Virus record (IMG/VR): IMGVR_UViG_2898748948_000004
Coordinates: 1 to 64,000 of that record
DNA from: a virus
Taxonomy: Duplodnaviria; Caudoviricetes
DNA: 64,000 bases
Reading direction: 5' to 3' (one strand)
In this document: positions 38,797-61,400 of the stretch, piece after piece
How the letters are laid out: each line of letters starts with the position of its first letter
Position numbering within the stretch: the stretch's first letter is position 1
Position numbers and translations under genes: made by a program
The notes under the pieces: model-generated
The model's database searches: none
Told to the model about the DNA's origin: nothing
What the model saw: the letters and a program-made list of their open reading frames with translations, nothing else

Positions 38797-38805
38797 AAGA
38801 TTCAC

Positions 38806-39389: not shown

Positions 39390-39413
39390 CACAAACCTCC
39401 AAGGGAGAACAAC

Positions 39414-40058: not shown

Positions 40059-40061
40059 CCC

Positions 40062-40292: not shown

Positions 40293-40327
40293 GAAGCTGC
40301 CTAGCTCAAGCAGAAGCAACCCATACG

Positions 40328-40352
40328 AACCGCCCATCGAGGCGGTTTTTTT
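40328..40352 (+). terminator. Intrinsic terminator closing the 38.5-40.3 kb insert
   Basis: AACCGCC-CATCGA-GGCGGTT plus T-run. Confidence 0.75.
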
Positions 40353-40356
40353 ACGA

Positions 40357-40373
40357 CCCCGCATAGGGTTTAG
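40357..40373 (+). promoter_or_regulatory. Late-promoter motif, copy 1 (upstream of terS)
   Basis: CCCCGCATAGGGTTTAG; near-identical copies at 45957 and 52434. Confidence 0.55.
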
Positions 40374-40405
40374 AGATTTTGGCGCCGCTCCAGACACTGG
40401 GGCGC

Positions 40406-42809: not shown

Positions 42810-42810
42810 C

Positions 42811-45144
42811 ATGCAGCCTATGACACACAAACCCATGGGCGACAACGCCCAGCAAGCGTTTGAACGCGGCTTCAAAGACACCATGGCCACAGTCATGCCG
42901 GGTACCGAAGTGGAGGATCAGGACACTATCGAGGCCAAGATCCGACACGAGCGCGATACCTTTCTGCTCAACCTCATTGCAAAGCGCCGCGAAGCTGTCT
43001 CTGGACGCAACTCATCCGGCATTGAGTTGGAGTGGAGCGAAGACGAAGAGCATTACCAAGGCATTGATGATGCCAACCGGGCATTTCACGCTGCCAACCA
43101 GCTCTATCGCACCTCCAAGGCCCATATGCTCGGTAAGGATACGACGGGCCCGGCCGGGCCTGCGCGTTCCGTGGTGTTCCTTAATATCACTCGCTCCTAT
43201 GTGGATGCCGCCAGCGCGCGAGTGTCCGACATGCTGCTCCCAACGGATGATCGGGCCTGGGCTATCAGTCCGACCCCGATCCCGAAACTCACTCCGTACC
43301 TGATGCAGCAGTTGCGCGACATGATGGGGCTCAGCTATAGCCAAAAGGTGATGGAGCAGTTTGTGGATCTGCAGATCCAGAACGCCAAGACCGCTGCCAA
43401 GAAGATGGAGCAAGCGATTGAGGACTGCTTGGTCGAGTCCAACTGGCACGGCGAGATGCGTCAGATGATTGAAGACTCAGGGCGCATTGGCTCGGGTGTT
43501 TTCAAAGGCCCGTTCCCCGTGCGCCGCGTGGCTCGGATGACGAAGCGAGATCCGGTGACAGGTGAAGTCAAGTTCATTCGCCTGTCTGAAATCAAGCCTG
43601 GCTCCAAGCGCATTGATCCCTGGAACTTCTTCCCTGACCCTGCCTGCGGTGAGAACATCCACAACGGAAGCTACACCTGGGAGCGTGAGTATCTGTCGAG
43701 CCGCAAGGTCAAGGAAATGCTCGAAATGCCTGGCTATGACAAGGCTGAGCTGATGGCTGTCCTGCGTGAAGGGCCAAAGTCCGCCCGTGAAGGTTCGGAA
43801 TCAAGCCATCGACAGAACGATGCCGAGTTTGAAATGTGGATTTTCCACGGTCACTGCGCGGCCGAGCACCTGCGCATGTACGGTGTGGAGCTGGAAGATG
43901 ATGTGGAAGAGAAGATGCCCACCATGGCCGTGGTGATCAACGATCGACTGGTCAAGATCACTCTGTCAGCCATGGATGAGGGAGAGTTTCCATATGATGT
44001 GCTGGCCTGGCAGCGCCGCCCTGGCTTGCCTTGGGGTGTGGGTGTGTCCCGACAGATCCGTACTGTGCAACGCATCTTGAATGGCTCCGTTCGCGCCATG
44101 ATGGATAACGCAAGTCTGAGCGCGGCGCCCCAGATCATCCTGGGCAACAAGGTGACACCCGAGGACGGCAACTGGACTTTGTACCCGGGTAAACGCTGGC
44201 GCGTTGAGGCGGACTCAGACATCACCGATGTACGGCAGGCGTTCAATGCCTTCATCGTCCCAAGCGTTCAGAACGAGTTGATGAACATCATCAACTGGGC
44301 CATGTCTATGGCAGAGGACACCACCGGCTTGCCTGCCATGCTGCAGGGAATCCGGGGGGATTCTCCCAATACGCTGGGAGGCATGCAGCTTCAGGATAAC
44401 AACGCATCCAGTGTTTTGCGCCGTCTGGCGCGCCGCTTTGACGACTATGTGACCCAACCACATATCCAGCGCTATTTTGACTGGATGATGCAGTACAGCG
44501 ACGACGACAGCATCAAGGGCGACTTTCAGATCGATGTGCGTGCGTCTTCTGCACTTCTGGAGCGCAGCAATCAGCAATCTTTCCTCATGCAGATGCTGGC
44601 GATCTCTAAAGACCCGACATACGGCCTCGACCCGGCGCGCCTCATGAAGGAGCTGCTCAAGGGGCAGCGCCTTGACCCCGAGCGTGTGGCATTGACGGAA
44701 GAGCAGAAGCAGGCTCAAGCGGAGAAGGCCGCGCCGCAAGACCCGACACTTCAGGCGCGTGCACAACTCCTGTCCGCCCAGGCCGAGCACACTCAGGCTC
44801 GTACCGCCGTGGAGCATGTCAAAGTCTCCGTGGAGCAAGCACGCGCCGAGCAGCTTCAGGCACAAGCAGCGACAACGAATGTTGAGGGCATGTATAGCGC
44901 TACCGAGGCGGCCAAGAACCTGCTGATGGCATCCCCTGTGGCGGGTGCCTCTGACGCAATTTGGAAGTCGGCTGGTGGGACAGACAAGGATCTGCCCCCG
45001 GCGCTCCCCCAGGTGCAAGGCAATGAGTTGGTGGCAAGTGGGCTGGTTCCACCACCTCAGACCAATACCAACCCCTTGACCCCCGCCAATCCAGCATCGC
45101 CTGCTACAGGAATGATGGCCGGCATCGAAGGGGGCGGCGACTGA
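42811..45144 (+). CDS. Portal protein
   Basis: About 777 aa after terL; VVFLNITRSYVDAA, GSGVFKGP, IDPWNFFPDP, PWGVGV, TTGLP, YFDWMMQY; C-terminal coiled coil. Confidence 0.85.
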   Translation: MQPMTHKPMGDNAQQAFERGFKDTMATVMPGTEVEDQDTIEAKIRHERDTFLLNLIAKRREAVSGRNSSGIELEWSEDEEHYQGIDDANRAFHAANQLYRTSKAHMLGKDTTGPAGPARSVVFLNITRSYVDAASARVSDMLLPTDDRAWAISPTPIPKLTPYLMQQLRDMMGLSYSQKVMEQFVDLQIQNAKTAAKKMEQAIEDCLVESNWHGEMRQMIEDSGRIGSGVFKGPFPVRRVARMTKRDPVTGEVKFIRLSEIKPGSKRIDPWNFFPDPACGENIHNGSYTWEREYLSSRKVKEMLEMPGYDKAELMAVLREGPKSAREGSESSHRQNDAEFEMWIFHGHCAAEHLRMYGVELEDDVEEKMPTMAVVINDRLVKITLSAMDEGEFPYDVLAWQRRPGLPWGVGVSRQIRTVQRILNGSVRAMMDNASLSAAPQIILGNKVTPEDGNWTLYPGKRWRVEADSDITDVRQAFNAFIVPSVQNELMNIINWAMSMAEDTTGLPAMLQGIRGDSPNTLGGMQLQDNNASSVLRRLARRFDDYVTQPHIQRYFDWMMQYSDDDSIKGDFQIDVRASSALLERSNQQSFLMQMLAISKDPTYGLDPARLMKELLKGQRLDPERVALTEEQKQAQAEKAAPQDPTLQARAQLLSAQAEHTQARTAVEHVKVSVEQARAEQLQAQAATTNVEGMYSATEAAKNLLMASPVAGASDAIWKSAGGTDKDLPPALPQVQGNELVASGLVPPPQTNTNPLTPANPASPATGMMAGIEGGGD

Positions 45145-45238
45145 ACTGCCTGTGGGAGTAGAAGCTGCTGGACTTGAAACGGCAGCAGTCCCCATCCATT
45201 TCCGTCCATTCCCATCCATTCATTCCTATCTGGCAACC

Positions 45239-45883
45239 ATGACCATTGACCACAAAACCCTCACCGACGAAATCCTGGCCACGCCCCAAGGCGTAGCTCG
45301 AGCTATCAAACTCAAGGACGCGCTCGGCAATGACTTCGGCCATATCACCTGGGTATGGGATAACGATTGCCTGAGTGTGGCGACTCAGAAGCTGCCGAAT
45401 GGCTACGAGGGCTTGGTGCTGGGCGTCGAAGACATGGTGGGAATCCATTTGGAGGGCAGCGCCTCGGCGCCAGCCGAAACCCAGGCCAAGGATCTGGCGC
45501 TGCAGCTCATGATCTGGGGTGCTTGTGTTGTGCCTTCCCCGAATGAGGGCGGCGCGCCAAAGCCAGCCATCGGGCCTATCACCCTGGATGTGGATACCGC
45601 CTGGGGCAAGGCACTGGCTCATGTGTCCTGTGATGGTGGTTTCATTCAGATCGATGTGTTGAACGCATGTGCACAGCCGCCGTTCTTTGTGGTGCTAGGT
45701 GAACATCTGGCCGCCGAGGTTCTGCCCACCATCAAGAAGCTGGTGGAGGGCGCCCCTTTGCCCTCTAGCGCCAATATCACCGAGCGCGTGGAAGGTGCTG
45801 TGAATGCTGGTACCAGCGCGCTCACCCAGCCGGTGCCGCTCGGGGCACCCAGCGTGCAACACGACATCTCGCAGCCTCATTGA
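45239..45883 (+). CDS. Hypothetical protein (214 aa)
   Basis: ORF between portal and terminator. Confidence 0.6.
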   Translation: MTIDHKTLTDEILATPQGVARAIKLKDALGNDFGHITWVWDNDCLSVATQKLPNGYEGLVLGVEDMVGIHLEGSASAPAETQAKDLALQLMIWGACVVPSPNEGGAPKPAIGPITLDVDTAWGKALAHVSCDGGFIQIDVLNACAQPPFFVVLGEHLAAEVLPTIKKLVEGAPLPSSANITERVEGAVNAGTSALTQPVPLGAPSVQHDISQPH

Positions 45884-45912
45884 TCAAGCGCTGAGTTCCT
45901 GAGCTGATAGCC

Positions 45913-45940
45913 AAACCGCCCACCGAGGCGGTTTTTTCTT
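45913..45940 (+). terminator. Intrinsic terminator
   Basis: AAACCGCC-CACCGA-GGCGGTTT plus T-run. Confidence 0.75.
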
Positions 45941-45956
45941 GCTTGGCCTTCGCCGC

Positions 45957-45973
45957 CCCTGCATGTGGTTTAG
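45957..45973 (+). promoter_or_regulatory. Late-promoter motif, copy 2 (upstream of head genes)
   Basis: CCCTGCATGTGGTTTAG right after the terminator. Confidence 0.5.
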
Positions 45974-46032
45974 ACATTCCCCCTCTCTCTACGAGCATTC
46001 ATCCATCAGTAACGCGCGTATTGGCTGGAGAT

Positions 46033-46272
46033 ATGAAGGCGCCCGAGCTTGAGATTGATTTCGACTCCGACGCCTGGAAAGTCCTCGAGGCCCATGCACG
46101 CAAGCAGCTGGACGATTTGCGACTGAAAAACGATGGCGTCGGCCACGACCTGCAAGCCACTTCGGTCATCCGGGGACGCATTGCGGTGTGGAAGGAGTTG
46201 CTGGATATGCCCAAGAGACGCCGAGAGGCGGAAGACCGGGCCAGTCGTCAGATCAGCCCAGGCGGCTACTGA
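46033..46272 (+). CDS. Small conserved head-module protein (79 aa)
   Basis: GGAG RBS; AWKVLEAH...LRLKND...IRGRIAVWKELL. Confidence 0.65.
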   Translation: MKAPELEIDFDSDAWKVLEAHARKQLDDLRLKNDGVGHDLQATSVIRGRIAVWKELLDMPKRRREAEDRASRQISPGGY

Positions 46273-46298
46273 ACCCCTAGACGTTTGGAGCAATACGC

Positions 46299-47441
46299 AT
46301 GAGCATGGAACAGGAAGACCAAGGTTTTGAACAAGGCTTTGCCTCTGTGATGAACCTCGAACCCGAGCAGCACGCACCCGCAGCTGATGCTGCCGATGCA
46401 GGTAATGCCGGTGGCGAGGTCGAGCAGGGCGCAGCCCAAGACAATGCCAATGGCTCCGATGCTGGTGCCCCCGAAGCGCCCGCTCCCGAAGCGCCCTCTG
46501 GTGAAGCGGGTGCAGCTGAATCTGGTGAGCAGGGCGCGGCCCAAGCTGCCAGCGAGCAGGGGGGCGCAGGGGATGGCGGTACGCCGGCTGATGCAGATCC
46601 AGACCCGAACGACGAGGTTCTACTCGATGGCCTGACCCGCCGCGAAGTACGCAACCTCCTATCGCGTGCCTCCGAAGTGGAAGGGCTCAGCGCGGGCCTG
46701 CGCAAGGTTCACGGAAAGATTGGCGAGTTGAACGACCGGCTCCGCAAGGCCCCGGCTGAACATGCCCCCGGTAACTACGGCGGCATTGCGCTCTCTGGTC
46801 TGGAAGGTGAAGCCTTTGACAAGGCGGTCACGGATGTGATGGCTCAAGCAAAGATTGATGCTGCCGCATTCGGTGATTACTCCGAAGAAGGCCTGGTGCG
46901 CGGCATCGTGACCACCATGCTCCGCATGCAGCAGCTCCAACAGTTGCCGCAGGTACAGAAGGTGCCGGCTGAGCCGGGCGGGCAGGGCGCGGCCTTGCCC
47001 GTGGACATGCCGCATTCCGCTGCAGCTGAGGGTCACACCCCGGCTGAATCCCAGCACGTAGACACGGCCTCGGCCGAAGCTGCCCAGCAGCACAGCGATC
47101 CCAGCATCCACGTTGAGCAGTTGGTGCTCGACCGCGTTCGCCCCGGCTGGCGCGAGACGGTTGCTGGACAGGAATTCAATCTCTGGCTTGGTGCGCAAGA
47201 CCAGTCGTATCAGCAACAGTACCTGCAGGCCAACACCGCCGAGAAATTCGCCGGTGTGCTCGACACGTTCGGGCAGTGGAAGACCGCGCGTGAAGCTGCC
47301 GTCTCCAAGAGTGCCAAGGCACAGGAGCGCTTGGAGCGCTCGCTGACTCCGACAGGACATGTACCCAAGCCTGCTGCCGCGATGACGGAGGACGAGGAAT
47401 TTGAAGCCGCGTTCGCCGCCGTCTCCAAGCAGCGCCTGTAG
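46299..47441 (+). CDS. Capsid scaffolding-like protein
   Basis: Acidic, low-complexity, directly before the capsid gene; PGWRETVAGQEFNLWL motif; DEEFEAAF tail. Confidence 0.65.
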   Translation: MSMEQEDQGFEQGFASVMNLEPEQHAPAADAADAGNAGGEVEQGAAQDNANGSDAGAPEAPAPEAPSGEAGAAESGEQGAAQAASEQGGAGDGGTPADADPDPNDEVLLDGLTRREVRNLLSRASEVEGLSAGLRKVHGKIGELNDRLRKAPAEHAPGNYGGIALSGLEGEAFDKAVTDVMAQAKIDAAAFGDYSEEGLVRGIVTTMLRMQQLQQLPQVQKVPAEPGGQGAALPVDMPHSAAAEGHTPAESQHVDTASAEAAQQHSDPSIHVEQLVLDRVRPGWRETVAGQEFNLWLGAQDQSYQQQYLQANTAEKFAGVLDTFGQWKTAREAAVSKSAKAQERLERSLTPTGHVPKPAAAMTEDEEFEAAFAAVSKQRL

Positions 47442-47470
47442 GCCTATCGGCCTGTATGAAAGGATGAGTC

Positions 47471-48511
47471 ATGCCTCAGTTTGAGAGCAACAATCCGACG
47501 CCCCGGATTGGCAAAATCAAGGGCGAAATCCTGGCGCACGCCGTCAGCTGCGAAGTGCTGGGCCTGACCGGTCAGCAACGCGGCATGGTCAAGAATGCGG
47601 GCAAGACCGTGGTGTACCGCCGCTATCTGCCCCATGGCGCGGCCAATACCGACTGGAACACCCGCAACCGCCCCAAGGCAGACCCCGCAGCTCATGAGCT
47701 GACCGAGGGTGTGACCCCTTCGGCGGATTCTCTGGTGCCCCAGGACATTACCGTGACCATCAAGGAATACGGTTGCCTGTACCAGCTGACCAACCAGACT
47801 GCTGACTTCTACGAAGACGATGTGTCCTCGGAAATGAAGAAGCAGTGCGGCGAGCGCATCGGCCTGCTGCGCGAGATGATCCGCTATGGCGTGGTCAAGG
47901 CGTGCACCAATGTGTTCTACGCTGGAAACGCGTCCAGCCGCGCAACCGTGGCGGGCAAGATCACTCTGCCCATCCTGCGCAAGGTCAGCCGCGGCCTGCA
48001 GGCGAACCATGCCAAGCGCGTCACCGGCATTCTGGCGCCCAGCACCAACATCAAGACTTCCCCTGTGGAAGCCTCGTATCTGGTGTTCGTGTCGTCCGAT
48101 GCCGAATCCGACATCCGCGATCTGCCCAAGTTCACTCCGGTGGCGGAGTATGGCTCGCGCAAGGTCGTGTCTCCCTACGAGCTGGGCTCCTGCGAGAACT
48201 ACCGCTTCGTGACCAGCCCCGAGCTGGCTCCTTACCTGGGAGCAGGCGCGGCTGTAAGCGGTACCGGTTTGCTGGGCGATACCAATGTGGACGTGTACCC
48301 GTTCGTCGTGACTGGTGAAGACGCCTGGGGCCAGCTGGCTCTGCGCGGTGCCAACGCGCTCGATCCGACCTACATCCCACCTGGCACCAAGGACAAGTCC
48401 GACCCTCTGGGCCAGCGCGGCTATGTGGGCGCCAAGTTCTACATGAACTGCGTGCTGCTCAACGAAGGCTGGATGGCGGTGGTTGAGGCCGGCGTCTCCG
48501 ATCTGGTCTAA
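47471..48511 (+). CDS. Major capsid protein, N4-gp56-like family
   Basis: GKTVVYRRY, LTEGVTP, TIKEYG, GSCENYRFV, DKSDPLGQRGYVGAKFY, LNEGWM. Confidence 0.88.
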   Translation: MPQFESNNPTPRIGKIKGEILAHAVSCEVLGLTGQQRGMVKNAGKTVVYRRYLPHGAANTDWNTRNRPKADPAAHELTEGVTPSADSLVPQDITVTIKEYGCLYQLTNQTADFYEDDVSSEMKKQCGERIGLLREMIRYGVVKACTNVFYAGNASSRATVAGKITLPILRKVSRGLQANHAKRVTGILAPSTNIKTSPVEASYLVFVSSDAESDIRDLPKFTPVAEYGSRKVVSPYELGSCENYRFVTSPELAPYLGAGAAVSGTGLLGDTNVDVYPFVVTGEDAWGQLALRGANALDPTYIPPGTKDKSDPLGQRGYVGAKFYMNCVLLNEGWMAVVEAGVSDLV

Positions 48512-48574
48512 CCCCACAAGGCGGGCTGCTGTGTAAAGGCGGCCCGCCTTTGGTACTTCTTCAAGGAAACACAA

Positions 48575-49051
48575 ATGAATGGATCTACTGTCGGTCGTCG
48601 TGGCGGCAAACAGCGTGAAGTGGATGCCGGTGCCGAGTACCTGGGCGCGGCCCCCGAGTTGATGCTGGGCGATGCTGCGGGCGATGTTGAGTCAATCGTG
48701 ACCGAAGTGGGCATGGATGCCGTGGCACAAGAGGCGTTCATGAACGATCTGCTGACCATCATCGTTGCCTCCAATGGTGCCGACGATGAAACCCCTAGCG
48801 TGCCTGTTGGCGTCAATGGCTCGTTCATCTACCTGCCGCGCGACATCCCCATTGATGTGAAGCGTAAGTATGTGGAAGTTCTGGCCCGTGCCAAGAAGAC
48901 TGACTACGACCAGACGCTGGACATCGCTCTGGGCGAGCGCATGAACAAGCTGACTCAGCGCCATGTGCTCAAGTACCCGTTCACAGTGATCAGCGATCCC
49001 GATAGCCGTGGCCATCAGTGGCTGCGCGAGATCCTGGCCCAGCGCCGCTAA
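48575..49051 (+). CDS. Conserved protein downstream of the capsid gene
   Basis: VPVGVNG..IYLPRD...VKRKYVEVLARAK...KYPFTVISDP. Confidence 0.6.
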   Translation: MNGSTVGRRGGKQREVDAGAEYLGAAPELMLGDAAGDVESIVTEVGMDAVAQEAFMNDLLTIIVASNGADDETPSVPVGVNGSFIYLPRDIPIDVKRKYVEVLARAKKTDYDQTLDIALGERMNKLTQRHVLKYPFTVISDPDSRGHQWLREILAQRR

Positions 49052-49068
49052 CTCAAGCCGGGCGCGCC

Positions 49069-49725
49069 ATGACACTCGAAGAGCTCATTGCTTTGTACCG
49101 CCGCAGAGCGCAGGACACGGAAGAGCCCCACCTGTGTGACGACGACACCGTGCGCCTGTACTTGAGGGAAGCGCAGGACGAGGCCTGCCGCAGAGGGCAA
49201 CTGCTCTTGCAGTCCACCGGTGCCATGTGTCAGGTGCAGTTCCAGGCCGGCGCCGAGCTGATCCAGCTCGATCGCAGGGTGCTGAAAGTGTTGCGCTCCT
49301 ACGTGGATGGTAGCCAGGTCAGGGTGGTGCCGGTCGATGTGATGGATCTCAATCATCCCAACTGGCAGTTTGACACCCTGCGTGACAAGCCAAGGGTCTT
49401 GATTTCTGGACTCACAACAGATGCATTGCACCTCTGGCCCATACCCAGCCAGAACGGGGAGGTTCGGCTGAGCGTTCAACGGCTCCCTATGAAACCGCTG
49501 CTTGTGGATTCGGATAAGCCCGAGATCAGGGAAGAAGCGCACCCGGCATTGGTGGAATGGGTCATGCATCGCGTGTATGGAACCCAGGACGTTGACCTGT
49601 ACGACCCGAATAGATCCGAGATCGCGCTGAGGAAATTTGAAGCTGAGTTCGGTAAGAAGAGCAGTCTGCGCAATGAAAACTGGGTGAGGGACGGTGCAGG
49701 GGCATTGCCCGCTCCGCTGGCCTGA
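49069..49725 (+). CDS. Head-tail adaptor-like protein
   Basis: MTLEELIALYR...YLREAQDEACRRG; LHLWPIP; HPALVEWVMHRVY...FEAEFG. Confidence 0.7.
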   Translation: MTLEELIALYRRRAQDTEEPHLCDDDTVRLYLREAQDEACRRGQLLLQSTGAMCQVQFQAGAELIQLDRRVLKVLRSYVDGSQVRVVPVDVMDLNHPNWQFDTLRDKPRVLISGLTTDALHLWPIPSQNGEVRLSVQRLPMKPLLVDSDKPEIREEAHPALVEWVMHRVYGTQDVDLYDPNRSEIALRKFEAEFGKKSSLRNENWVRDGAGALPAPLA

Positions 49726-49742
49726 TCCCGAAAGGATAGGCG

Positions 49743-51827
49743 ATGGCCAACCCCAAAGATGAATTCCAGCGACAGCAGCAAGCTGTGGCAGCTGCTGATG
49801 CGAAGGGCGGACAAGTTCAAGGCTTGGCTGTCTCGACTGACCCCAGCAATGCCAGCCGCTTTGCCAAGGTGCCCCCGGGCATCGGTGGTAATCCGCTCGT
49901 TCAGCAGTCGGCGCAAGCGGAAAAGAACACGAACCCCATTGCGGAAGCGGCTATGACCACGCCTGCTGCGCCAGCTGCCTCCCCTAAACCAAGCGCGCAA
50001 TCGCCGGGCTTCACCCCAGCGCCAGCTACGAACTCTGCTGCAGGTTCCGCAGCTGCCGTGCCACTTTCCCCGCAGGCTCAGTCCGATAGAGCGCGAGTCG
50101 GCGCAGCCTGGGATACCGTCAAGGATGTGAACGACGACGCCGGCCGGGCCATTGCGGATATGGCGATGCTCGTGCCTCGCGGCGTGGCGGGTGCGTATGA
50201 CAGCGCCGTGGTTCGACCCATGCGCGCCGCCGGCGTCAATGCCAGCTACCTGAGCCCCCATCTGGTGCCTGATGGCGTCGATCCAAGTAGCATGACGCCG
50301 TTCACCGACCAAAAACGCATGCAGCAGGCCGCCAACAGCAGAGCGCCTGGCGCTGCAGCTGTGCAGCCAGCTCAGACCGCTGGTGCCGGAGCGGGTACCT
50401 CTGAAGTCGGTGGCGGGCGCGGTTCCATCAATCCGCCGATGGCTGACCCCAGCGCACCGACCACGACCCTGGCCGGTGGTGCGACAGTAACGGGCAACCC
50501 CATGGCCCAATGGGATCGCACTGGCATGACCAATGCCGAGGTGGCACAAGCCAACCCGGGTGGCCGAGTGACCATGCAGCGCCAGCCCAATGGAACCATG
50601 TCTTTCAGCGGCACTGATGTATCGGGGCCGGTGTCTTACGCAGATGGTGCGGGCAAGCCGCTGCCTGGTGCAGGCATTCGCGGCAATGGCTTCAGCCGGG
50701 TAGATTCGACCCCCGCGGGCGCTTCTGTTGGCATGGACGGCGCAGGCAACTATGCATTTTCGAGCGGAAACCCGCTCACCAATGGCGCATCTGCTGGCCG
50801 GTCTCCTGTGGGAATGTCTGTTGAACAGGCTCAGCGCGAAGGCTTGATTGGTCAGCGAGTCGGATACAACCCTGCATATGACCAGCGGCTCACGGGCGAG
50901 AAGAGCCAGGCACCTGACAAAAACACTGGAGCTGCATCTTCTACAGTGGATTCTGCGCTCGCATCTGCGGCTGCAAGGGGTGACTTTGACGCTGTGCGCG
51001 CCCACTACGCGGGGCGCGGCCAAGAGTTTGGCCCGCAGGGGGCAGCACAGGGCACGGGTGTTCCTGCATTCGAGGCTCCTACTGTGCGCCACAGCGGCAA
51101 TGACTGGGCGGCGCGTCAGCAACTCAAGGATATGGAGGCTTCTGCGAGTTCGATCACCAACCGTGCCGAGTGGCGCAGTGGCAGCAGCACCCCCGCATGG
51201 GGCTCGCGCCATCAAGGGCAGAACGACCCGGACGGAAAGGTCGCGCGCTTCAATGCTGCCACCCAGGCCGATCTGGCTGCGCAAGGCAAGGCGCCTGACC
51301 TGCAGCAGCGCACCAATGAAACGAATGCCGGACTGCAACGCGCCGCCATGAGCGAGCAGGGTGAAAACTACCGGGCTGCCGGCAGAAATGCCATCGCAGC
51401 TGCTGGTCTGGCTCAACGCGGCCAGGAAATTAGCTCTCAGGCGGAGCTGCAAAACCTGGAGGTACAGCGCGCTCAACGCAGTGCTGGCGTCATGCAGCGC
51501 TATGACTCAGCCAAGGATGACGCAGAGCGCATGCAGCTCATTCGCCAATACCCTGATGTATTTGGGCAAAAGGCCATCGGGCCCCAGGGCAAAGACCGCT
51601 ACATGACCGTTGGCGGTGGAACGTCTGTGGTGGACGGTCAGACAGTGCGCGAGCCAACCATGGTGTTCGATACTGTCACTCAGCAGTACGTTGGCGGGGG
51701 TGCGCCTGGTGGCGGTCAGGCCGGACAACCAGCAAAAGCGCCGACCTACGAAAAGGATCAGATCTACGTCGATCCACAGTCAGGTGCGAAGCGGCGATGG
51801 AATGGACAGAGCTGGGATCGCGTGTAA
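49743..51827 (+). CDS. Internal virion/DNA-ejection-like protein (694 aa)
   Basis: Ala/Gly/Gln-rich and largely unstructured; C-terminal YVDPQSGAKRRWNGQSW; position before the giant virion protein. Confidence 0.6.
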   Translation: MANPKDEFQRQQQAVAAADAKGGQVQGLAVSTDPSNASRFAKVPPGIGGNPLVQQSAQAEKNTNPIAEAAMTTPAAPAASPKPSAQSPGFTPAPATNSAAGSAAAVPLSPQAQSDRARVGAAWDTVKDVNDDAGRAIADMAMLVPRGVAGAYDSAVVRPMRAAGVNASYLSPHLVPDGVDPSSMTPFTDQKRMQQAANSRAPGAAAVQPAQTAGAGAGTSEVGGGRGSINPPMADPSAPTTTLAGGATVTGNPMAQWDRTGMTNAEVAQANPGGRVTMQRQPNGTMSFSGTDVSGPVSYADGAGKPLPGAGIRGNGFSRVDSTPAGASVGMDGAGNYAFSSGNPLTNGASAGRSPVGMSVEQAQREGLIGQRVGYNPAYDQRLTGEKSQAPDKNTGAASSTVDSALASAAARGDFDAVRAHYAGRGQEFGPQGAAQGTGVPAFEAPTVRHSGNDWAARQQLKDMEASASSITNRAEWRSGSSTPAWGSRHQGQNDPDGKVARFNAATQADLAAQGKAPDLQQRTNETNAGLQRAAMSEQGENYRAAGRNAIAAAGLAQRGQEISSQAELQNLEVQRAQRSAGVMQRYDSAKDDAERMQLIRQYPDVFGQKAIGPQGKDRYMTVGGGTSVVDGQTVREPTMVFDTVTQQYVGGGAPGGGQAGQPAKAPTYEKDQIYVDPQSGAKRRWNGQSWDRV

Positions 51828-51831
51828 CAGC

Positions 51832-52359
51832 TCAGTTGCGCAGAGGGACTGCACGGGCCGGGTTGAAGTCATCCCCGGCCTTTTTCATTTCTTGGTAGGT
51901 GCTCAAGGGAACAGCGCGAGAAGGGTCGAAGGTGTCATCCTTGCCGGCAGCACGATTGGGCAGGGCTCCCGGGCTGGAAACAGGTACGCGCCCTTCGGCT
52001 GCGTCAAACTGGTGGTCGTTGGTTCGTGTATAGACCGTGCCTAGCATCAGCAGTGCGGCGCAACCGATGCCCACCGCGATTCCAATGGCCTTGGTTGGGA
52101 GGTTCACAGTGAAATAACCAATGGCCGTGCCCAGCAGGCTCCACCAGAAGGCCTGAGCGAACATGGCCGGCAACGCCGATTGTTGTGGCGTCATACCGGT
52201 GGCGCTCATTAATCCGATGGCCAGCATTGAGCCCGCCAGCAGTCCGCCGGACATCGATACCCCCCAGATAACCCCGGCGCCCGCCGCCCTGAACTGCATG
52301 CGACGCATGTAGTGGGCAGCCAAACAAGCAATGGCTGTGCACAGTGCGAAGTAGATCAT
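51832..52359 (-). CDS. Antisense multi-pass membrane protein with FDPSRAVP repeats
   Basis: GGAG RBS; about four hydrophobic helices; tail DDTFDPSRAVP...DDFNPARAVPLRN. Confidence 0.7.
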   Translation of the reverse strand: MIYFALCTAIACLAAHYMRRMQFRAAGAGVIWGVSMSGGLLAGSMLAIGLMSATGMTPQQSALPAMFAQAFWWSLLGTAIGYFTVNLPTKAIGIAVGIGCAALLMLGTVYTRTNDHQFDAAEGRVPVSSPGALPNRAAGKDDTFDPSRAVPLSTYQEMKKAGDDFNPARAVPLRN

Positions 52360-52433
52360 TGGAGCTCCCCTTTTTTGGCGGATTGTAACTATTGTCACTT
52401 GTGGCATGAAATAGTCGCGTTTGCGGGGTGCAG

Positions 52434-52450
52434 CCCTGCATAGGGTTTAG
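52434..52450 (+). promoter_or_regulatory. Late-promoter motif, copy 3 (upstream of the giant gene)
   Basis: CCCTGCATAGGGTTTAG 30 nt before ATG 52481. Confidence 0.55.
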
Positions 52451-52480
52451 CGTTTTGCGTGCCCCGGATGACATTGGGGT

Positions 52481-55400
52481 ATGAGCGCAAATGACCAATT
52501 CGACCCCAGCCGTGCCGTACCTGTGAACTCTGCCGCCAGCCAGAAGCCGGAAGACGACTTCAACCCTGGTCGTGCCGTACCGATGAATGCGGATAACGCT
52601 CTGGTGCGCGGCTGGAAGTCGATGAGCAACTCGGTGGGAATCACCAAGGATCTGGCAACGGGTGATGCAGCGGCTGTGGCGCGCCGAGTCAAGGAATTTG
52701 ACGACTACAACCGCGTCAATCCTGGCAGTCAGCAGGGTCAAGAGCTGTCCAAGGCATGGGAGCAAGGCGACGGCATCACGGGCGGCATCGCAGGCGTTGC
52801 CGGCGAAATCGCCAAGGATTGGAAGGAAGCACCCAACTGGGTAGGTGGCGTGCGCTCGGTGGCTGGCAATGCAAAAGCCATGGGCGATGGCCTGGTTGCC
52901 CAGGTGCCCAATATGCTGGCACCGATGGTCGGTATGGTGGGCGGTGGTGTTGCGGGCGGCGCGGCAGCGGGGCCGGTTGGTCTGGCTGCTGGTGCATGGG
53001 CAGGCGCCTCTGCTGGCAATACGCTGGTCGAGGGCGGTGGCATGCTCATGGATCGCCTGAACAAGGCTGGCATCAATCCTCAAGACACTGCGGCCGTGGA
53101 GAAGTTCACCCGCGAGCAAGGCGATGCTGCGCTGGGTGATGCTGCCATCAAAGGCGCCATCATCGGAGCCGTTGATGCAGCCACCGCTGGCGCTGGCGGC
53201 AAGATCCTGAACGCGCCGGCGAGAGCAGCGGCAGACCGTGCACTGACGAAGATGGGCGTTGACATGACGGACGGCGCGGCGGTCAAGGCCGCTCAGAAAT
53301 CCGATGCCTTCAAGGATCTGGTCGCCAAGGATGCGACCTTCCAGGCTGCAAGCTCAGGCGCTGGCAATGTTGCCCGTAACGTGGGCGTCGCTGCTCTTGA
53401 TCCCGCAGGCGAGTTTGCCGGCGAGTTCGTGGGACAGGGCGTTGCCACCGGTGACTGGGACACCAAGAACGCGGCATTGGAAGCGATCTCGTCCGTGGGG
53501 CAGTCGGCCCTCATGTACGGTGGCCAGAAGGCCTATCAGGCGGCGACCAGCCCCCTGCGGGACAAGCGCGCGAACGAGTCTGACAAGGCCGATGGCGAAC
53601 CGGAGGCAGGCAATCCAGTGCCGCTCATGCTGACCAATCAGCCCCCCGACACCTTGTTCACCCATCCAGACGGTTCTACAGGACGCCGCTCCGAAATGGA
53701 GTCGTACTTGAACAGTCTCAATGATGGGACGCCTGCCGGCGAGCGCCGGATGATGAAGGAGCGTGCCCGCTTGTTGGGCTATTCCTCGCCCGAGCCCTAC
53801 GAGTTTGAAATTCCTGATCTCGTGCCTTGGCAAGAGGACTATCGCAATCACTCCTTCGGTCTGCCGTATCAGCCACTGCAAGATCATCTGGGCGCCGTTC
53901 AAGCAGCCGTGCGTAGCGGAACCCAGTTCACAGATCAGCAGACTGTCGATGCTGTGCGCTCCACCATGGAAGACGCTTGGCTTGAGGCCAACGTAAAGCA
54001 GCAGCCCGCGTCGGCGGTCGAGGCAGCCAGCATTGCCGGTCAGCAGATGGAGCAAGAACTGGCCGCGGCGGCGCCTGGTGAGACAGGTTCCACAGCAGCT
54101 GTCGATGCCCAGGTGCGCACCAGCCGAATACTGTCTGGTCTGCAGAATGCCATGGACAGCGGTGCCATGGGAACAGCCCAGTCCATCAACTATCTGAACG
54201 AGGCCCTGACTCGCATTGGTGAGCAACCGCTCGCGCAGGACGAGGCAGCGCGCGCTCGCCGTCTGCTCGATGCGCATGCGGCATTCACCGGAAAAACCAC
54301 GCCCGCGCCACTGCCGGGTGATCTCGCCGCTCAAAACCCTTTGGTCGATGAGTTTGCCGACAACGCGGCATTGGAGTCCCTGGTTCGGCGCAAGCCATCT
54401 GAGCGACTGGGCATTGATCCCAGTGCCGGGCCCAACTCGAAAGCCGCAGCAATGGCGGTCGATGCGGCGCAGTCCGAGCCTGCAACCCCTGCCATCGATG
54501 CGGCTCAGCCTCTATCGCTCCAGAACCCGCTGTTGGCCATTTCATCCAGCAGGGAGAACGCCGCTCCAGCGGCATCGCCATTCAACATCAACGGAGATCT
54601 CGATGGCCGTGAAGCCTATCAAGCCCAGCAAATCAGAGCGCAACAGGCGCAAGCAAGAGCAGCGCAAGGCAGCGAAGCTGGTGGCCGACAAGACCAAAGC
54701 ATTTCAGGCATTGGCAGTGCACCTGGGCATTTGGGGCAAGGCGTAGGCTATGGCACCGCCCCAGCTATCAACAATGGCCCGCAAGTCCCAGCGCAGAATG
54801 CAACGCAAGGCCAAGCGTCAGAAGCTCAGACTGCTACGGAAACAGGAGCGCGCGAAACACGAGAACCCAGCACCTTCTCAAAGTATGCAGGTCAGAGTGA
54901 ATCCTCTGAGGCCAATGGCGCTATAAATTCAGAGGCGAAGCAGGCGGCGCAACCCGCTTCCGACGCCATGACCATCGGCAGCACCCCCAAGACTGGCGAT
55001 GCGGTGTCTGTGCGCGACGGCGTTGTGTATCTGGGTAACTATGAGGCGCTGGACTACGACAGTGGCGAACCCATCACGGTTCCCGCCGACGCAACTCGTG
55101 GCCAAGTGGCCCAGGCCCTGCGCGATGGCGGGGTACTGACCGACCGCCAAAAGGTCTTCGGCCTCAAAGACCGCGAGCATGAGCGCATATCCGGCCCGGT
55201 GGCCCCCGCCGTTCAAGCTCCGGCTCCTGCGCCGGCCGCCAATGCGCCTGCACCGAATCCTGCGAGGCTGCGCCAGCAGAAGGCCATCGAGCGTATCAAC
55301 AGCGAGAAGGGCGCCTACTTCTTCTCCAAGTCCAAGGCCGATGCATTCCTGGCCGATAACGATCTGCAGGACGGCTATGAGGTCGTGCAGCAAGAAAAAG

Positions 55401-58400
55401 CGTTTGCCATCAAAGCCAAGCAAGCGATCGCGGCAGCCGTGGAAGCGGAGGCGCCTGCTGCCGGAGAAGCCAATCCCGTCACCAATCAGAATTCTGGTAC
55501 CGGCATTTCCGGGCGCGATCTGGGCGACGGCTGGGCCGAATTTGCCCCTGAGTCGGGCACCAAGTCTGTGCCTCGGGCAGAAATGCCTCAGATCAAGGCC
55601 GAGCACCGCGGCGCCATGGTGAATTTCATGAACGCGCGCGGCGTGGCCCATGAAGAGGCGACAGTGCCTGCTTCCAGTCTCAAGCCCACCCAGCGCGAGT
55701 TCAGCCGCGAGAAGGTAGAGAAGGCCAAGGCCTATACCGGTGGCAATCGCGCCATCCTGACATCCAGCGACGGTCATGTGCTGGACGGCCATCACCAGTG
55801 GATGGCGGCGCGCGAGAACGACGAGGATGTGCGCACCATCCGCCTGGACGCGCCCATTGATGAGCTGGTGAAGCTGGCTCACGACTTCCCCAGCTCTACT
55901 GTTGCTGATGGCGCTACTGAAGGCCAAGCGAAGGAGGATCAGGGCGAAGCATCCCAAACAGCGGCAGAGCGTGCCACACAGTCGAATGCTGACTTCATCA
56001 AGGCGTTAGCAGAAGCCCGTAAGGAGCTGCCTGCTGGATTTGAGATCACCCCCATGGGTGACACGATCTCGCTCAAGGAGAAAGGCAAGTTCGCTGTTAA
56101 TGGGCTTGGCCGCAACCGTGCAGGGGTGGAAGAGGCTCTGCGACAGGCGAAGCAGCGTGATTCTCAGAATAAAGCTGAAGCCGCTGCACCTGAGCAAACC
56201 AAGGGTGAGAAGAAAAAACCGCGCCTGGCGGAAAGCGCTGATGCTCTGTGGAAGGCCATCAAGGAAGCAAGCAATGGTGTTGTTACCGAGCGCGGTATCC
56301 GCTATCCGATCATGGAAGTTGTCGGGGGCGATTGGTTCATGATGGATTCCAATGCCCGCTTGAAACTGATTGATCGTGGCGCTGCGAGCTTGTCCTACTC
56401 CGAGCCAACCGATGCTCAGATTGCTGAGTTTCACGATGCCTTGGAAAAAGACCAGGTGCAAGTGCGCGTGATGGAGCGTGCTGGTTACGAGTCCGACTAC
56501 AAGAACCCTAAGACCCTGCAAATCTTGCATAGCCCCTCTGGCATGGGCTTCAATTCGGCTGCCCGGTCTGTCATCCACAAGATGGCGTTCAAGAAGACGG
56601 AGGCCGAGCGCATTGAAAGTCAAGCTTCCGTCAAGAAGGCCGCAGAGCAGGAGGCCAGAAAGGCATCCCGCGAGGTCGAGCGTGACTTGTTCCGCCAGAT
56701 GACGGCGGCCAACGGCGGCATGGCCGGCAAGAGTCTGGATCAAGTGACCGATGCGCTCAAGCAGCAACTCGGCTCCCGCGACGCCAGCACCGCGCTCAAC
56801 CCGGTGCAGATTTCCCGTCTGGCTCGCGCCATCCATAAACAGCTGCAGGCCAATGCGGCACAGCTGGCTAAGGAAGCAGCGCGCGATCCCCAGGTGAAGG
56901 CTGATGCCCAGGCCGAGGCCTTGGGCAATGCCTTTGGCGAGGACGTATCGCCCCAGAGCAAGGGCGATTTCCTGCTGGGCTTTGACCACGCATTGGCTGG
57001 CAAGACCAAGAGCACGCTATCTGGTGCCGGCCTGGCCGACATGGTGAAGGGCTACGAGGCCGCGAGCGAATGGATGGGTACCGAGGAAGGTGCCGCCTGG
57101 TTTGAAGGCAAGCGCCGCAAGAAGCTGGAAAACACGGGTGTGGATCTGCGTCGCCACTGGGAGGCCATGAAGGCCCAGATGAAGGCCGGCGAGTCCGATA
57201 TGCAAAAGGCATGGAAGCAAATCGAAGCGGCCACTAACCGCGCCGAGCTGTTTGCGCCATATCTACCCGAGGGCTCTACCCCTGGCTGGGTGGCATACGT
57301 GTCTCAACTGCGCGGCATTACCAAGACGTTCAAGCAGTTCATGTTCGACGGCCGAGCAAGCTGGTATGGCTCTGTGGCTGTGTCTCGTAAGGGTAAGGAA
57401 GCGGCCAATCTGGAGTTCGTTCTGGACGGCAAGCGCTACCCCGGCGCCATGTCGATCGAGCAGCGCCAGCAGTGGCAGACCGACCCGGTGTTCCGCATGG
57501 CTCAGCTGCGCGAAGCTGCTGAGCTCTATATAGAGAAGGTGCAAGAACTCACGGCATTCCTTGACGGCGCCACATCGCTGAAGGAGGCCGCTGATCGCTT
57601 TGTGGACACCATGGTCGCGGAGAAGCACCAAGAAAAGGCCCGCAACCGCGACACCTACTACAGCCGCTATGAGCGCATCAATGCGGATCGCCTAGACGGT
57701 GTGCTGTACGGCGTTCACGGCGGTGGAGTGTTTGACCGTGGAGTGTGGAATGGCGACTCCTACGATTTCACCAAGTTCCGTGCGGCTAGTCCCTGGGCCT
57801 CGGGCCTGATTGCGAACGAGGCAACGCATGCGTTGCCCACGCGCGCCACGCCGCTGACACCGCCCAAGCTGGATCGTGTCGATCGCGCCATGTCCAAGGA
57901 TCATCGCGGCGGCAAGGATGTGACGCCCGCGCAGTTCAAGGCACAGTTCGGCTTCGCGGATGTGGGCTTTGGCAACTGGGTCGGAGCCAAGAACGACCAA
58001 GATCACCTGAACTACGCCTTCGACGCCTTCATGGATCTGGCTGAACACTTCGGCTTTGCGCCGAAGAACATCGGTCTGGGCGGTGTGCTGCATTTCACGG
58101 TAGGCGCGCTGGGTCATGGCAAGTTCGCTGCACATTTCAGTCCCAACCACCCTGGGCCCAATGGCCGCGTGCAGGTCATGAATTTGACCAACACCAAGGG
58201 TGACGGAACGGTGTACCACGAGTGGGCCCATGCACTTGACCACAACCTAGGTGGTGAATGGGATCGGGTCAAGGTCATGATCCTCAACGCTTTCAAGTTC
58301 AAGGCCTATGAGGCTTCGGACTGGGAGCGCGTGGCCCGCAATTTCCTAGTGGGCGGTTCCTACTGGCAGGGCAACAAGAACCAAGACAAGGTGGACGCGG

Positions 58401-61400
58401 CCATTCAAGGCCTGCGCTACTACGCCAACACCGGCGCTCGCCGCGGTCTGACAGCCTATAAAGAGAATGCCGACAAGCTGGGCAAGGACTATTGGGGCAA
58501 TGACGCCGAGCTGCTGGCACGCGCCGTTGAGGCCTGGTCTGCGGACAGCCTGGGCGGCATCAACTCCTATCTGGTCAATCAAGACTGGGTGGGCGACGGC
58601 AAGGTGACTCAGGCCAGCGGCTATCGCGGCACGCCGTATCCCACCGGTGGAGAGCGGGTAGTGTTTGGGCAGTACCTGACGGCTCTGGCCAAGTCCGTGA
58701 AGTTCACCGATGGCAAACCCACTGTGACCGTGACAGACTTCGAGAGGAATCTGCCTGCGAACATGGGTGCTGGTGAAGTGCGACGCAGGGAGCTGTTGTC
58801 CCGGGAGGGTATGCAGGCCTATTTCGAGCAGGTGCAGGAAGAGCGCGCCATGGCGGCCGAAGAGAAGGCCCGTCTTGAACTCGAGAAGCAGGCCGAGGAC
58901 AAAGCCAAGGTTGATGCCATGGCCGAACAGGCCCTGGCCGAGCTAGAGGCAATGAGCAAGCCCGCGGTAGTGGACGCTCCTGCACCTTCGGAATCCCGCG
59001 GCCCTCTGTCCGATGACGACCTGAGCGCAATCTTTGATCAGGCGGCAGCCGAGTTGCGCGAGCAAACCCAGGAGCAGCCGAATGTATCGGCCACCAACGA
59101 AGCAGCCGCTATCAGCGAAACTGTTGCTGCTACTGTACAAGCAGCGGCCGGACAGGCAGACAAGACCGCGGCTAAGCTGATTGCCGAGGCTGCTAAGCTG
59201 GGCGTGACCGGCGCCAATGAAGCGCTGTCGGGCCTGGCCAAGCTGTTCGGCGGCGGCAAGGGCGGTCGTCTGAACTCCTTCCCGGCCGGCTTCGATGAGG
59301 AAACCTACAAGGCGGCTAAGCCGCACTTCAAGGCTGCGCTCTCATCCTTCCAAGCAGCTGGCAAGTCTCTCAAGGATCTGTTCAAGCTGCTGATCCAGAA
59401 CTTTGGCGATGGGGTCAAGGATTACGCTATCCAGTTCGCCAAGGATGAGGGCCTGTCCGCGCAACTGGGCAAGGCACCAACTGCTGGCGCTGCTCGCAGC
59501 CCCTCGGGCGTACTGGCCGACTGGGTGAAATCCCAGCTAGAGCGCGGCGCGGCTGATGGCAGTTTCGACTGGCGCGCATTGTTTGAACAAGCTGATTCCG
59601 CCTTTGGTGGCACGCAGGCTGAGGGCAAGTACACGCCCAAGGATGCCTACGATGCCATGGAGGCGGGGGTTAACCATTTCATTCTGTCCCGTCCCGGCGA
59701 GTTCAACCCGAACGCCAGCCAGGATGCAGCTCACATCATCGTGGAACGTCTGCACCGCATCACGCAGATGCTGCCGACTCAGACGAAGCGCACTGCGGAA
59801 CAAGATGAGTTCCAGCAGTTCAGCACTGTCCCAGCCCTGGCCTATGCAGCCAACTGGGCGGCAAACATGGATAGCAGCGACACGATGCTGGAGCCCAGCG
59901 CCGGTATCGGCGGTCTGGCGGCCTTTGCGAAGAATGCAGGTGCTAAGCTGATCCTGAATGAACTCAGCAGCCGCCGCGCTGCCGTGTTGCGTGAGGTGTT
60001 CCCGGCAGCCAAGGTTTTCACGGAGAACGCTGAGCAGATCGACAACATCCTGCCCGCGACGGAGATCCCTTCCGTGGTGGTGATGAACCCACCCTTCAGC
60101 GCGACCGCTGGTCGCATTCAAGGCAAGCGTGACACGCATGTCGGCGCCCAGCATGTTGAGCAGGGCTTGAAGCGCCTGGCCGATGGTGGCCGTCTAGTGG
60201 CCATCGTGGGTGAGGGCATGAATCTCGACCGCCCGGCCTTTGCCGACTGGTGGAAGGGCATTCGCGCCAAGTATGACGTGCGCGCCGTGATCCCCATGGA
60301 TGGCTCCGGCTACGCCAAGTACGGCACGACCTTCGACAATGCCATTTTGGTGATCGACAAGGTGAAGCCGTCCAATCGTCCTATTGTCACAACTCCTGCC
60401 AAGACTTACAGTGACCTCATTGGCAGCCTTGCCGAGATCCGCAATGACCGACCAGAATCTATTTTCCCGTCAAACGATCGTGACGGACTTGAACTCGACG
60501 CCGCAGAGCATGCACTTGCTGAGTCTTCTCAAGCAGGCAGGGGTTCCGCACAACCCGAACAATCTGGTAGTGACCAGCGTTCTGATGTGGGCCGCGCAGA
60601 ATCTGGCCGGGGACAGGGGCTGGGCGCAGGAGGTGGAGGGCGCGGCAGCGCTGGCGGATCTGGAGTCGCCGGAAATGATGGCGCAAAATCTCGCCCAGGC
60701 CGAGGTGCTGGAAGCAACGACGCTCGAGGAAGCCGCGATGATTCTGCTACAGGAGGTGGCGGATCTGATGCCGCCCAATCAGCTCTAAGCATTCAGGCGA
60801 CTGAGCAGGCCGGCGATCCCGAAGCTGGCCTGAGTGACTCGATCTTTGAGTCCTACCAGCCCCAGCGTCTGCAAGTACCCGGTGCCAAGCCGCACCCCGG
60901 CCCGCTGGTGCAATCTTCGGCCATGGCCGCCGTGTTGCCGCCCGTACCGACTTACACCCCGAATCTGCCCAAGGAAACGATTGAAAAGGGCTTGCTGTCG
61001 ATCGCCCAGATTGAGGCAGTCGTTTATGCGGGCCAGGCCCATCAGGAATTGCTGGAGCCTATTACCGTTGATGGCAAGGATGTCGCTTATCGCCGCGGCT
61101 TCTTCATCGGTGACGGTACCGGTGTTGGTAAGGGGCGCGAGATCTCGGGCATCATTCTGGACAATATGCGCCAGGGCCGTGAAAAGGCTGTCTGGATTTC
61201 GGAGAAGCCCGGGCTGCTGCCCGACGCACAGCGCGATTACTCGGGCATCGGCGGCGATTCCAAGCAGATCTTCAATGTCAGCAAGACCAAGGCCGAAGAG
61301 CAGATCAACGCTGACAAGGGTATCGCCTTCCTGAGCTATGCCACTTTGCGCAGCGGCGCGAAGTCTCAGGAAAATGTTGCCACTCCCACCACCAAGGCAC

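Follow-up and report, generated by a model that had tools for sequence, protein, structure and literature searches.

A provirus membrane protein that copies the leader motifs of a neighbouring giant virion protein: a candidate decoy in superinfection exclusion

The window analyzed here, a stretch of 64,000 nucleotides, corresponds to positions 1-64,000 of the IMG/VR record IMGVR_UViG_2898748948_000004, which IMG/VR classes as a provirus and whose whole contig comprises 86,442 bases (91% complete). Between the genes of a 694-residue protein and of a giant virion protein it harbors, on the opposite strand, a small gene for a membrane protein, the C-terminal tail of which carries the same short motifs, in the same order, as the leader with which the giant begins. 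This mimicry is under purifying selection and co-varies across lineages and on two unrelated protein scaffolds, which suggests that the membrane protein may be a decoy directed against the entry of related phages.

The membrane gene and its neighbours

The candidate inner-membrane decoy gene (51832-52359, minus strand) encodes 175 residues, with four predicted transmembrane (TM) helices followed by a tail of about 55 residues. The minus-strand open reading frame (ORF) at 51832-52407 translates without stops to 191 residues, and the start was placed at Met17 (MIYFALC...) because all homologues (P0004-P0009) begin there; this agrees with the divergent 175-residue membrane protein of the preliminary description. 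A GGGGAG sequence lies 6 nucleotides before the ATG. Searches against Pfam, PHROG and NCBIfam gave no family match for the protein. It ends with DDTFDPSRAVPLSTYQEMKKAGDDFNPARAVPLRN, and according to a six-frame scan the tail-coding part (residues 121-175, 51835-51999, minus strand) contains FDPSRAVP at 51907-51930 and FNPARAVP at 51844-51867, together with a degenerate third copy, QFDAAEGRVPV (ca. 51979-52011), just past the last membrane helix.

The stop codon of the membrane gene is separated by 4 nucleotides from that of the convergent gene for the 694-residue low-complexity protein (49743-51827, plus strand), which is flanked by the genes of the SU10-type adaptor and of the decoy and matches phrog_11341, a PHROG of unknown function. 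Further 5', Pfam and PHROG matches reveal genes for an SU10-type portal, a major head protein and the SU10-type adaptor. The labels "podovirus" and "ejection protein" applied to the 694-residue protein derive from this gene order (SU10-type portal plus adaptor), according to which it is probably an ejection or internal virion protein. On the other side, the ATG of the divergently oriented giant gene is 121 nucleotides away. Every relative keeps this arrangement: adaptor, 694-type protein, membrane gene in the opposite orientation, giant. One relative sits within a 5.9-Mb Comamonas testosteroni chromosome and is therefore an integrated prophage. A PF00589 search of the 86-kb record found no integrase, the record being 91% complete, so the phage may still have one.

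The giant (5215 residues; plus strand, 52481-64000 in the window and on to 68128 of the contig) shows by Pfam and PHROG comparison an LPD1 domain (5e-08), AAA_34 (3e-112) and Helicase_C_4 (2e-82), the latter two constituting a Strawberry-notch-type helicase, as well as matches to methyltransferase PHROGs (N6-methyltransferase-like region); its relatives also bear LPD37 and LPD39. Since LPD1, methyltransferase and Strawberry-notch helicase domains are found in one chain, we consider it a polyvalent protein, i.e. one that combines several unrelated enzymatic and LPD domains and is encoded among virion genes, as is observed here. Such proteins are inferred to travel inside the capsid and to be delivered together with the DNA (Iyer et al. 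2017, PMC5512222), and the giant, which resembles them in domain content and in location among virion genes, would be packaged and injected in the same way. The part of PMC5512222 considered contains, in its account of polyvalent proteins, no tandem leader, no lineage-specific variation of it and no pairing with an upstream C-terminus. Together with the polyvalent proteins, the P1 DarB-like injected proteins can be named as the closest known parallels of the giant.

The N-terminus of the giant reads MSANDQFDPSRAVPVNSAASQKPEDDFNPGRAVPMNA. The leader (residues 1-37; 52481-52591, plus strand), with FDPSRAVP at 52499-52522 and FNPGRAVP at 52559-52582, is a swappable module that precedes a conserved D-N-A-L-V-R-G-W domain.

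Tail and leader match at the protein level

BLASTP aligns the tail with the head of the giant over 34 positions, 19 of them identical (E 7e-10), and shuffled tails never attain the tail-leader score (p<=0.0005). When all six frames of the window and of the 86,442-base contig were scanned, the pattern F[DN]P.RAVP turned up in four places only, two in the tail and two in the leader. The preliminary description had noted the same two motifs in the same order in both proteins, and had counted six synonymous differences among the eight codons of FDPSRAVP. Both observations hold: our recount gives 6 of 8 codons different between tail and giant, all synonymously, and of the 10 codons of the second motif five differ synonymously and one non-synonymously.

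The tail is also the conserved part of the membrane protein. FDPSRAVPL.TY...K...D.FNPARAVPL.N is invariant in 7 homologues, in which the membrane part goes down to 40% identity. Between the window and L002, a locus of the same motif type, the first 36 codons of the membrane gene accumulate 6 synonymous and 26 non-synonymous changes, and the last 37 codons, i.e. the tail, 12 synonymous and 6 non-synonymous ones, none of the latter within the motifs. These patterns identify the ORF as a genuine gene, with tail motifs on which purifying selection acts strongly.

The leader is a lineage-specific module

The related giants, retrieved from contigs of viruses and metagenomes, all open with two tandem copies of a short aromatic/acidic motif, behind which comes the conserved D[NG]AL.RGW domain. 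The motif is specific to the lineage, with at least 12 types, and the relatives carry other tandem pairs as leader in front of 260 residues that are up to 98% identical. Examples are the pairs IDDFLSG/IDNFLGA, NNWLDEGS/TSWLDEQS, NPFADPNYG/NPFSNPDYG, EQWWAEHP/DDWWSAHP, TPFDGELD/SFTGKLD and DQFGGTLVPP/DGFGGFLV, the repeated GMFDDL (two copies) and NWNDFTPI (two copies), and FEFDPTTATP/SFDPSTA in Pseudomonas phage D14S, a Hollowayvirus. In the sibling provirus G001, residues 38-300 of the giant are 98% identical to those of the window and the leader is unrelated (IDDFL).

The giant's own conserved N-terminal domain was considered as the partner of the leader and ruled out, because between the window and locus L008 this domain is 98% identical while the leaders are unrelated.

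Tail and leader co-vary on two scaffolds

The relatives of the membrane protein make up a family, defined here and as yet unnamed (4-TM family), characterized by M[IL][YH]F..C at the N-terminus, a Q[AG]FWW sequence in the third of four helices and a C-terminal tail that varies, features that alignments show in the window protein as well. A word-index search retrieved 6 relatives, and an exhaustive profile search 15 representatives of the family at E<=0.001, including 7 with E<=1e-10, whose tails are very different across the family; scans of genome contigs with the family and with the N-terminal domain of the giant yielded no confirmed relatives. The gene is optional, many relatives being devoid of it.

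Tails were compared with the next large virion gene where both lie on one contig, with p values from shuffling. Three motif types match strongly on this scaffold and a fourth weakly, the strong ones all with p<=0.0005. In the window type (window, L002 and L004) the tail motifs FDPSRAVP/FNPARAVP face leaders with FDPSRAVP/FNPGRAVP and variants thereof; in L025 the tail IDWEKGVFTPP faces NWENGSFTAP/DWESGSFAPA; and in L027 the tail VTWSDFTP faces VNWSDFTP, with 5 kb of Arc/ANT/YafO morons between the two genes. In the matrix of scores the cognate tail-leader pair is the best of its own row and column for 4 of 5 types. Moreover, the tails of P0019 and P0022 end in KPFDGQLD..VPFTGKLDGEK, which is the leader type of L016 and L017, and the tail of P0025 contains EFDPLTAVPA, the D14S type; the contigs of P0019, P0022 and also P0020 are short, and their genomic context is partial.

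Some tails string motif types together, as in P0018 (FDPSRAQP, FNPQRAVP and EIEKFLDGG) and likewise in P0025, and may be multi-specific decoys. P0018, with its FDPSRAQP/FNPQRAVP motifs and an extra C-terminal domain, is located in L024 (1-6754) beside DUF927 primase and Toprim genes, outside the adaptor/giant context, and may be a decoy aboard another mobile element. The extra domain, of about 80 residues and with no Pfam match, is found in the longer family members P0015, P0018 and P0024-P0026 (..IYAAHPDADA.F.S..F..W.. / ..LVLDKVRPGWRE..S..FN.W..).

A second scaffold emerges from L009, where the same slot is occupied by a 119-residue exported protein that ends with SATDQFGGVVVQPNE, the giant of that locus starting with MTQDQFGGTLVPPTDGFGGFLV. 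This protein belongs to a large family (at least 147 matches; VF_A0006-like, precomputed PF28034), found in Paracidovorax, Acidovorax, Comamonas and Simplicispira, whose members combine a signal peptide with a conserved four-cysteine core, which ends in ACR[RK]LYD, and with a tail of 8-20 residues that is hypervariable. The discrete types into which the tails fall are those of the leaders, and include FDPARAVP[IV]R, the type of the window. In 45 viral contigs, which gave 43 usable loci, the tail was compared with the N-termini of all ORFs of >=350 residues in the locus. The lowest possible shuffle p (1/301) was reached in 17 of the 43 loci, against a chance expectation of about 0.14 loci, and p<0.02 in 24; in each inspected case the matched ORF is a large divergent virion protein. 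The NFFDQFD tail type is present in L060, L061 and L076. In L056 (2880-3251, plus strand) the tail has FDPSTARP and then PFTGTLDGE, and may likewise belong to a multi-specific decoy.

The window protein, with its four TM helices and without the four-cysteine core, falls outside this secreted family, a profile of 32 members of which found no match in the 86-kb record. The two have in common the genomic slot, the orientation, the tail repertoire and the co-variation with the neighbouring large virion protein, whereas the secreted proteins consist of a soluble core of about 85 residues plus a signal peptide, lack membrane helices, have an unrelated scaffold and usually carry one copy of the motif where the window protein carries two.

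The preliminary description had named, as one point on which its idea would stand or fall, whether the motifs of the membrane protein follow the N-terminus of the giant in relatives. They do so over many motif types and on two unrelated scaffolds. The tracking holds at the level of the motif type and not residue by residue, because in the closest relatives the tail is invariant and the copies in the giant drift slightly (FNPSNAVPL in L002, FNPDRAVRL in L004). That tail and leader are functionally linked can be taken as nearly certain.

The shared motifs could also be a functionless by-product of recombination at a mosaic joint, the region being a recombination hot spot packed with morons (Arc/ANT, toxin-antitoxin pairs, DUF4124). 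We regard this as very unlikely, since the motif codons show synonymous differences, the tail stays unchanged in homologues whose remaining sequence has diverged, and the same relation is seen for at least 12 motif types and with two scaffolds that are unrelated to each other.

The existence of two scaffolds also bears on what the membrane domain does. Several exclusion-type prophage proteins work via membrane depolarisation, and the membrane protein could similarly be an abortive-infection sensor, in which the tail captures an incoming virion protein and the four-helix domain then leaks ions and kills the cell. The conservation of the 4-TM domain as a family (15 representatives at E<=0.001), needless for a pure tether, speaks for such a role. 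However, in the same slot the same tails are also carried by a secreted, soluble scaffold devoid of a membrane domain, so that display alone seems sufficient, and evolution is much faster in the membrane part than in the tail. The sensor is hence quite unlikely in comparison with a decoy that acts by displaying its tail.

The upstream protein ends in an exchangeable module

The last 28 residues of the 694-residue protein (...IYVDPQSGAKRRWNGQSWDRV; 51741-51824, plus strand) form a C-terminal module. Compared with its counterpart in G001, the protein is nearly identical up to residue 420 and diverged thereafter, with unrelated ends. At the DNA level (window 36000-55900 against G001), identity is 91% up to 51031 and 69% over 51349-51687, there is no match from 51687 to 52592, and beyond that point identity is 87%. 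The block exchanged between the two proviruses (51031-52592) takes in the end of the 694-residue protein, from about residue 430 on, together with the decoy gene, the intergenic DNA and the first 37 codons of the giant. In database homologues two alternative ends follow the shared FDTVTQQYVGG, each with its own leader type: ...YVDPQSGA.RRWNG..WDRV and ...AIRDNPKLTYDQKVAELEKLGYNR, the latter paired with IDDFL-type giants.

Among 42 non-identical loci, similarity between tails correlates with similarity between the 28 C-terminal residues of the convergent protein upstream (Mantel r 0.80, p<=0.0005); for the backbone just before the module r is 0.15. Loci with the same backbone and different modules have a mean tail similarity of 0.19, and loci with different backbones and the same module of 0.52. 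The backbone NRQSGQFVQQP, for example, is found with at least 5 modules, and the tail type differs from one module to the next. A prophage of Paracidovorax citrulli (L081) presents what is, as judged from the sequences, the module/leader/decoy triple of the window on another chassis: a different upstream protein of 451 residues ending QVYRDSQTGAQRRWNGKTWDRL (the RRWNG..WDR module), a different giant of 2168 residues with MuF_C/LPD38 that starts MAQDDFDPARAVSIGGPADDFDPSRAVLL (FDPxRAV leaders), and a decoy on the secreted scaffold with the tail EADFDPARAVPIR (FDPARAVP). In the secreted-family protein P0116, a copy of the C-terminal module of the upstream protein, PPGMKPVGTSGGKPVYEDANGKRFISE, replaces the leader copy (compare L040, L023 and L069), so that here the other partner would be the one mimicked by the decoy.

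The module is hence a candidate docking site for the leader and, as such, would be the target of the decoy. The preliminary description had put forward the RRWNGQSW motif of the 694-residue protein as one possible partner, and this proposal has gained weight, since the module co-varies with the motif independently of the backbone and recurs elsewhere with FDPxRAV leaders and an FDPARAVP decoy. From these patterns, we give the module somewhat better than even chances of being the actual partner.

The upstream ejection-type proteins of more distant lineages begin with a conserved G-P-G-T-G-T-S-D-[SD]-I...P-A-G-S-Y-I-M-P-A-D-S-T (L001, 9096-9250; L010, 1728-1900), a start motif that is absent from the 694-residue protein of the window.

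The partner could instead be a protein of the host. Colicins recruit Tol or Ton proteins through short disordered epitopes, and the leaders, short and probably disordered tandem motifs of aromatic/acidic character at the extreme N-terminus, resemble these translocation epitopes. Leader and tail would then both bind a protein of the periplasm or envelope on which the incoming phage depends, exclusion would result from saturation of that host factor, and display of the tail in the periplasm would fit equally well. Yet a host partner would be expected to keep the motif constant within a host group, whereas at least 12 motif types exist among closely related phages of one bacterial family and siblings with 87-91% DNA identity bear unrelated motifs. 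Furthermore, the motif type tracks a phage-encoded C-terminal module, and one decoy copies that module. A host factor is thus an unlikely partner, and the phage-encoded module is the one we retain in what follows.

Topology and expression signals

Lysine and arginine residues of the membrane protein cluster in loop 1 (RRMQFR) and in loop 3, and loop 2 has none. By the positive-inside rule this predicts the N-terminus outside, four helices and the tail in the periplasm, which is the topology that a decoy facing incoming phages needs. A periplasmic tail agrees with the family member P0017, which lacks helix 4 and has, after helix 3, a K-rich region on the cytoplasmic side and then a zinc ribbon, with the cysteine pair present in some tails, and with the export of the second scaffold by a signal peptide.

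Concerning transcription, a TACAAT box resembling a -10 element (52382-52387, minus strand) lies 22 nucleotides upstream of the ATG and is invariant in six loci whose flanking intergenic DNA has diverged; it is a hint, and only that, of an own promoter of the decoy gene. A metatranscriptome contig spans 51798-52319 at about 92% identity, and late genes are covered as well, these contigs carrying neither strand nor level.

Two runs labelled as transcriptomic (X4 and X5) contain one 46-kb contig of a related phage at a depth of about 140-150, which may stem from an induced prophage or phage or from DNA carry-over. This phage has a replaced segment of about 630 nucleotides inside the gene of the 694-residue protein (50901-51585).

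The coverage of membrane gene and late genes alike is compatible with expression in the lytic cycle rather than from the prophage, and T4 Imm and Sp are indeed produced in lytic growth. The protein could then retain the ejection proteins during assembly or set their timing, or stop progeny from re-infecting the producer cell. A tail in the periplasm, however, cannot meet cytoplasmic assembly intermediates, and the gene, which is optional, runs on the opposite strand, convergent with the late operon and with a conserved box of its own, as P22 sieA does; the re-infection variant, in turn, would still be exclusion by the same mechanism. A lytic role therefore appears distinctly improbable, and we keep to a decoy expressed by the prophage, for which exclusion at entry is, from the sequence patterns, a likely function.

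Comparison with known exclusion systems

The closest parallel in position is SieA of phage P22, an inner-membrane superinfection-exclusion protein that blocks DNA injection, with escape mutations that map to C-terminal portions of the ejection proteins gp16 and gp20 (Leavitt et al. 2024, PMC10883804). The predictions for SieA are of 3 helices and of a cytoplasmic position for its conserved motif, FxRYPxEAxxFNK; the three SieA types (A-C) show no difference in target range, and the gene is optional among relatives (PMC10883804). In the P22 genome sieA (13336-13830, minus strand) faces gene 16, whose end is at 13313, in convergent orientation; it possesses a promoter of its own and neighbours mnt/arc/ant. 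The window gene is placed alike: it encodes a small protein (both are of about 165-175 residues) predicted to reside in the inner membrane, lies on the opposite strand directly after the last ejection-type gene and convergent with it, and is optional. The Arc/ANT morons that occupy the same slot in L027 recall the arc/ant neighbourhood of sieA.

Homology does not follow position. A tblastn search with the window protein against 50,697 phage records, P22 among them, gave nothing, and the SieA motif FxRYPxEAxxFNK is absent from its translation. It also has four predicted helices against 3 in SieA, and tails that are sharply type-specific where the SieA types are alike in target range. SieA itself, compared with P22 gp7, gp20, gp16 and gp9, shows no local similarity beyond shuffled controls, so that the mimicry does not extend to SieA at the sequence level. 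The window protein is thus SieA-like by its position and, as far as sequence comparison tells, by its probable role, and stands outside the SieA family.

Other phage-encoded envelope proteins that stop DNA transfer after adsorption, be they inner-membrane proteins, periplasmic proteins or lipoproteins, are T4 Imm and Sp, HK97 gp15, Ltp of Streptococcus phage TP-J34 and P1 Sim, among which HK97 gp15 and Ltp target the tape-measure or ejection machinery of the incoming phage. The window protein has no homology that we found to any of these five, and to our knowledge none of them has been reported with a copy of its target's docking peptide or with exchangeable specificity tails. Exchangeable peptide mimicry, the apparent mechanism here, was not found described in our literature searches on mimicry or decoy exclusion.

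Proposed mechanism

We propose that the tail is a decoy displayed in the periplasm, which would compete for the docking of the giant's leader on the C-terminus of the 694-residue protein and thereby confer superinfection exclusion, a reading that the sequence comparisons make fairly probable. During infection, the internal virion proteins would exit the capsid and reassemble in the periplasm, where the leader of the giant would dock on the C-terminal module of the preceding 694-residue protein. In a lysogen, the tethered tail would occupy this module, or otherwise compete for the site of the leader, so that the trans-envelope conduit of an incoming phage of the same lock-and-key type would not be completed and its DNA would be kept out. 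Since the virion proteins of tailed phages are periplasmic only during entry, a periplasmic copy of the leader would act only on the incoming particle.

Several observations pull in the other direction. About half of the secreted-scaffold loci show no tail match within the locus DNA compared. On the 4-TM scaffold, the weak fourth type consists of the C-TEISEFL-C tails (L007, L032 and L034), which resemble IDDFLGG leaders weakly (p 0.013-0.27), with p 0.027 in L032, 0.013 in L034 and no significance in L007. The correspondence between module and motif is also imperfect: the motif that accompanies the ARWDGQK[FW]VP module is FDPTTATP in D14S and WENGSFTAP in L025, and one module cluster holds two tail types. 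As module, tail and leader lie within about 1.5 kb, part of the co-variation may reflect inheritance as one recombination block and not binding. Finally, a consensus scan of 51500-52700 found no full sigma-70 site and no terminator.

A broader reading, for which we see roughly equal chances of being right or wrong, is that Burkholderiales podovirus-like prophages possess an exchangeable lock (the C-terminal module of about 28 residues) and key (the tandem leader), together with programmable decoys that jam phages of the same type. The decoys would be unrelated envelope scaffolds tipped with the key, and sometimes with the lock, possibly also in other mobile elements, and some of them, with two or three keys, would be multi-specific. 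Within this scheme, lock and key would be hypervariable and swapped as cassettes because of an arms race.

How prophage proteins of the SieA type stop DNA entry is largely unexplained. Here, the sequences name a likely contact, in which a short leader peptide would meet the C-terminal module (about 28 residues), and suggest a simple, re-programmable competitive mimicry. If this is true, the motif types would tell which prophage excludes which phage, and the scheme would show how giant injected proteins couple to the ejection conduit and would account for the recombination hot spot in these genomes. Tail-leader matching also offers a bioinformatic handle on exclusion genes and on contacts of the ejection machinery in uncultured phages.

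Other features of the slot

The slot between the gene of the 694-type protein and the giant is a moron hot spot (L027, 100-5000; L032, 8900-10500; L030, 7951-8580; L009, 2000-3350). Its contents include Arc/ANT, as in P22 immI, a YafO toxin, a YoeB/YefM pair, a CopG-like gene and a DUF4124 secreted protein, and it also houses other exported proteins without leader motifs. A conserved AAACCCTATGCAGGG element is located at 52425-52450 of the window, ca. 35-55 nucleotides before the ATG of the giant, and is found at the same place in L002, L004, L005 and L034, loci that have otherwise diverged.

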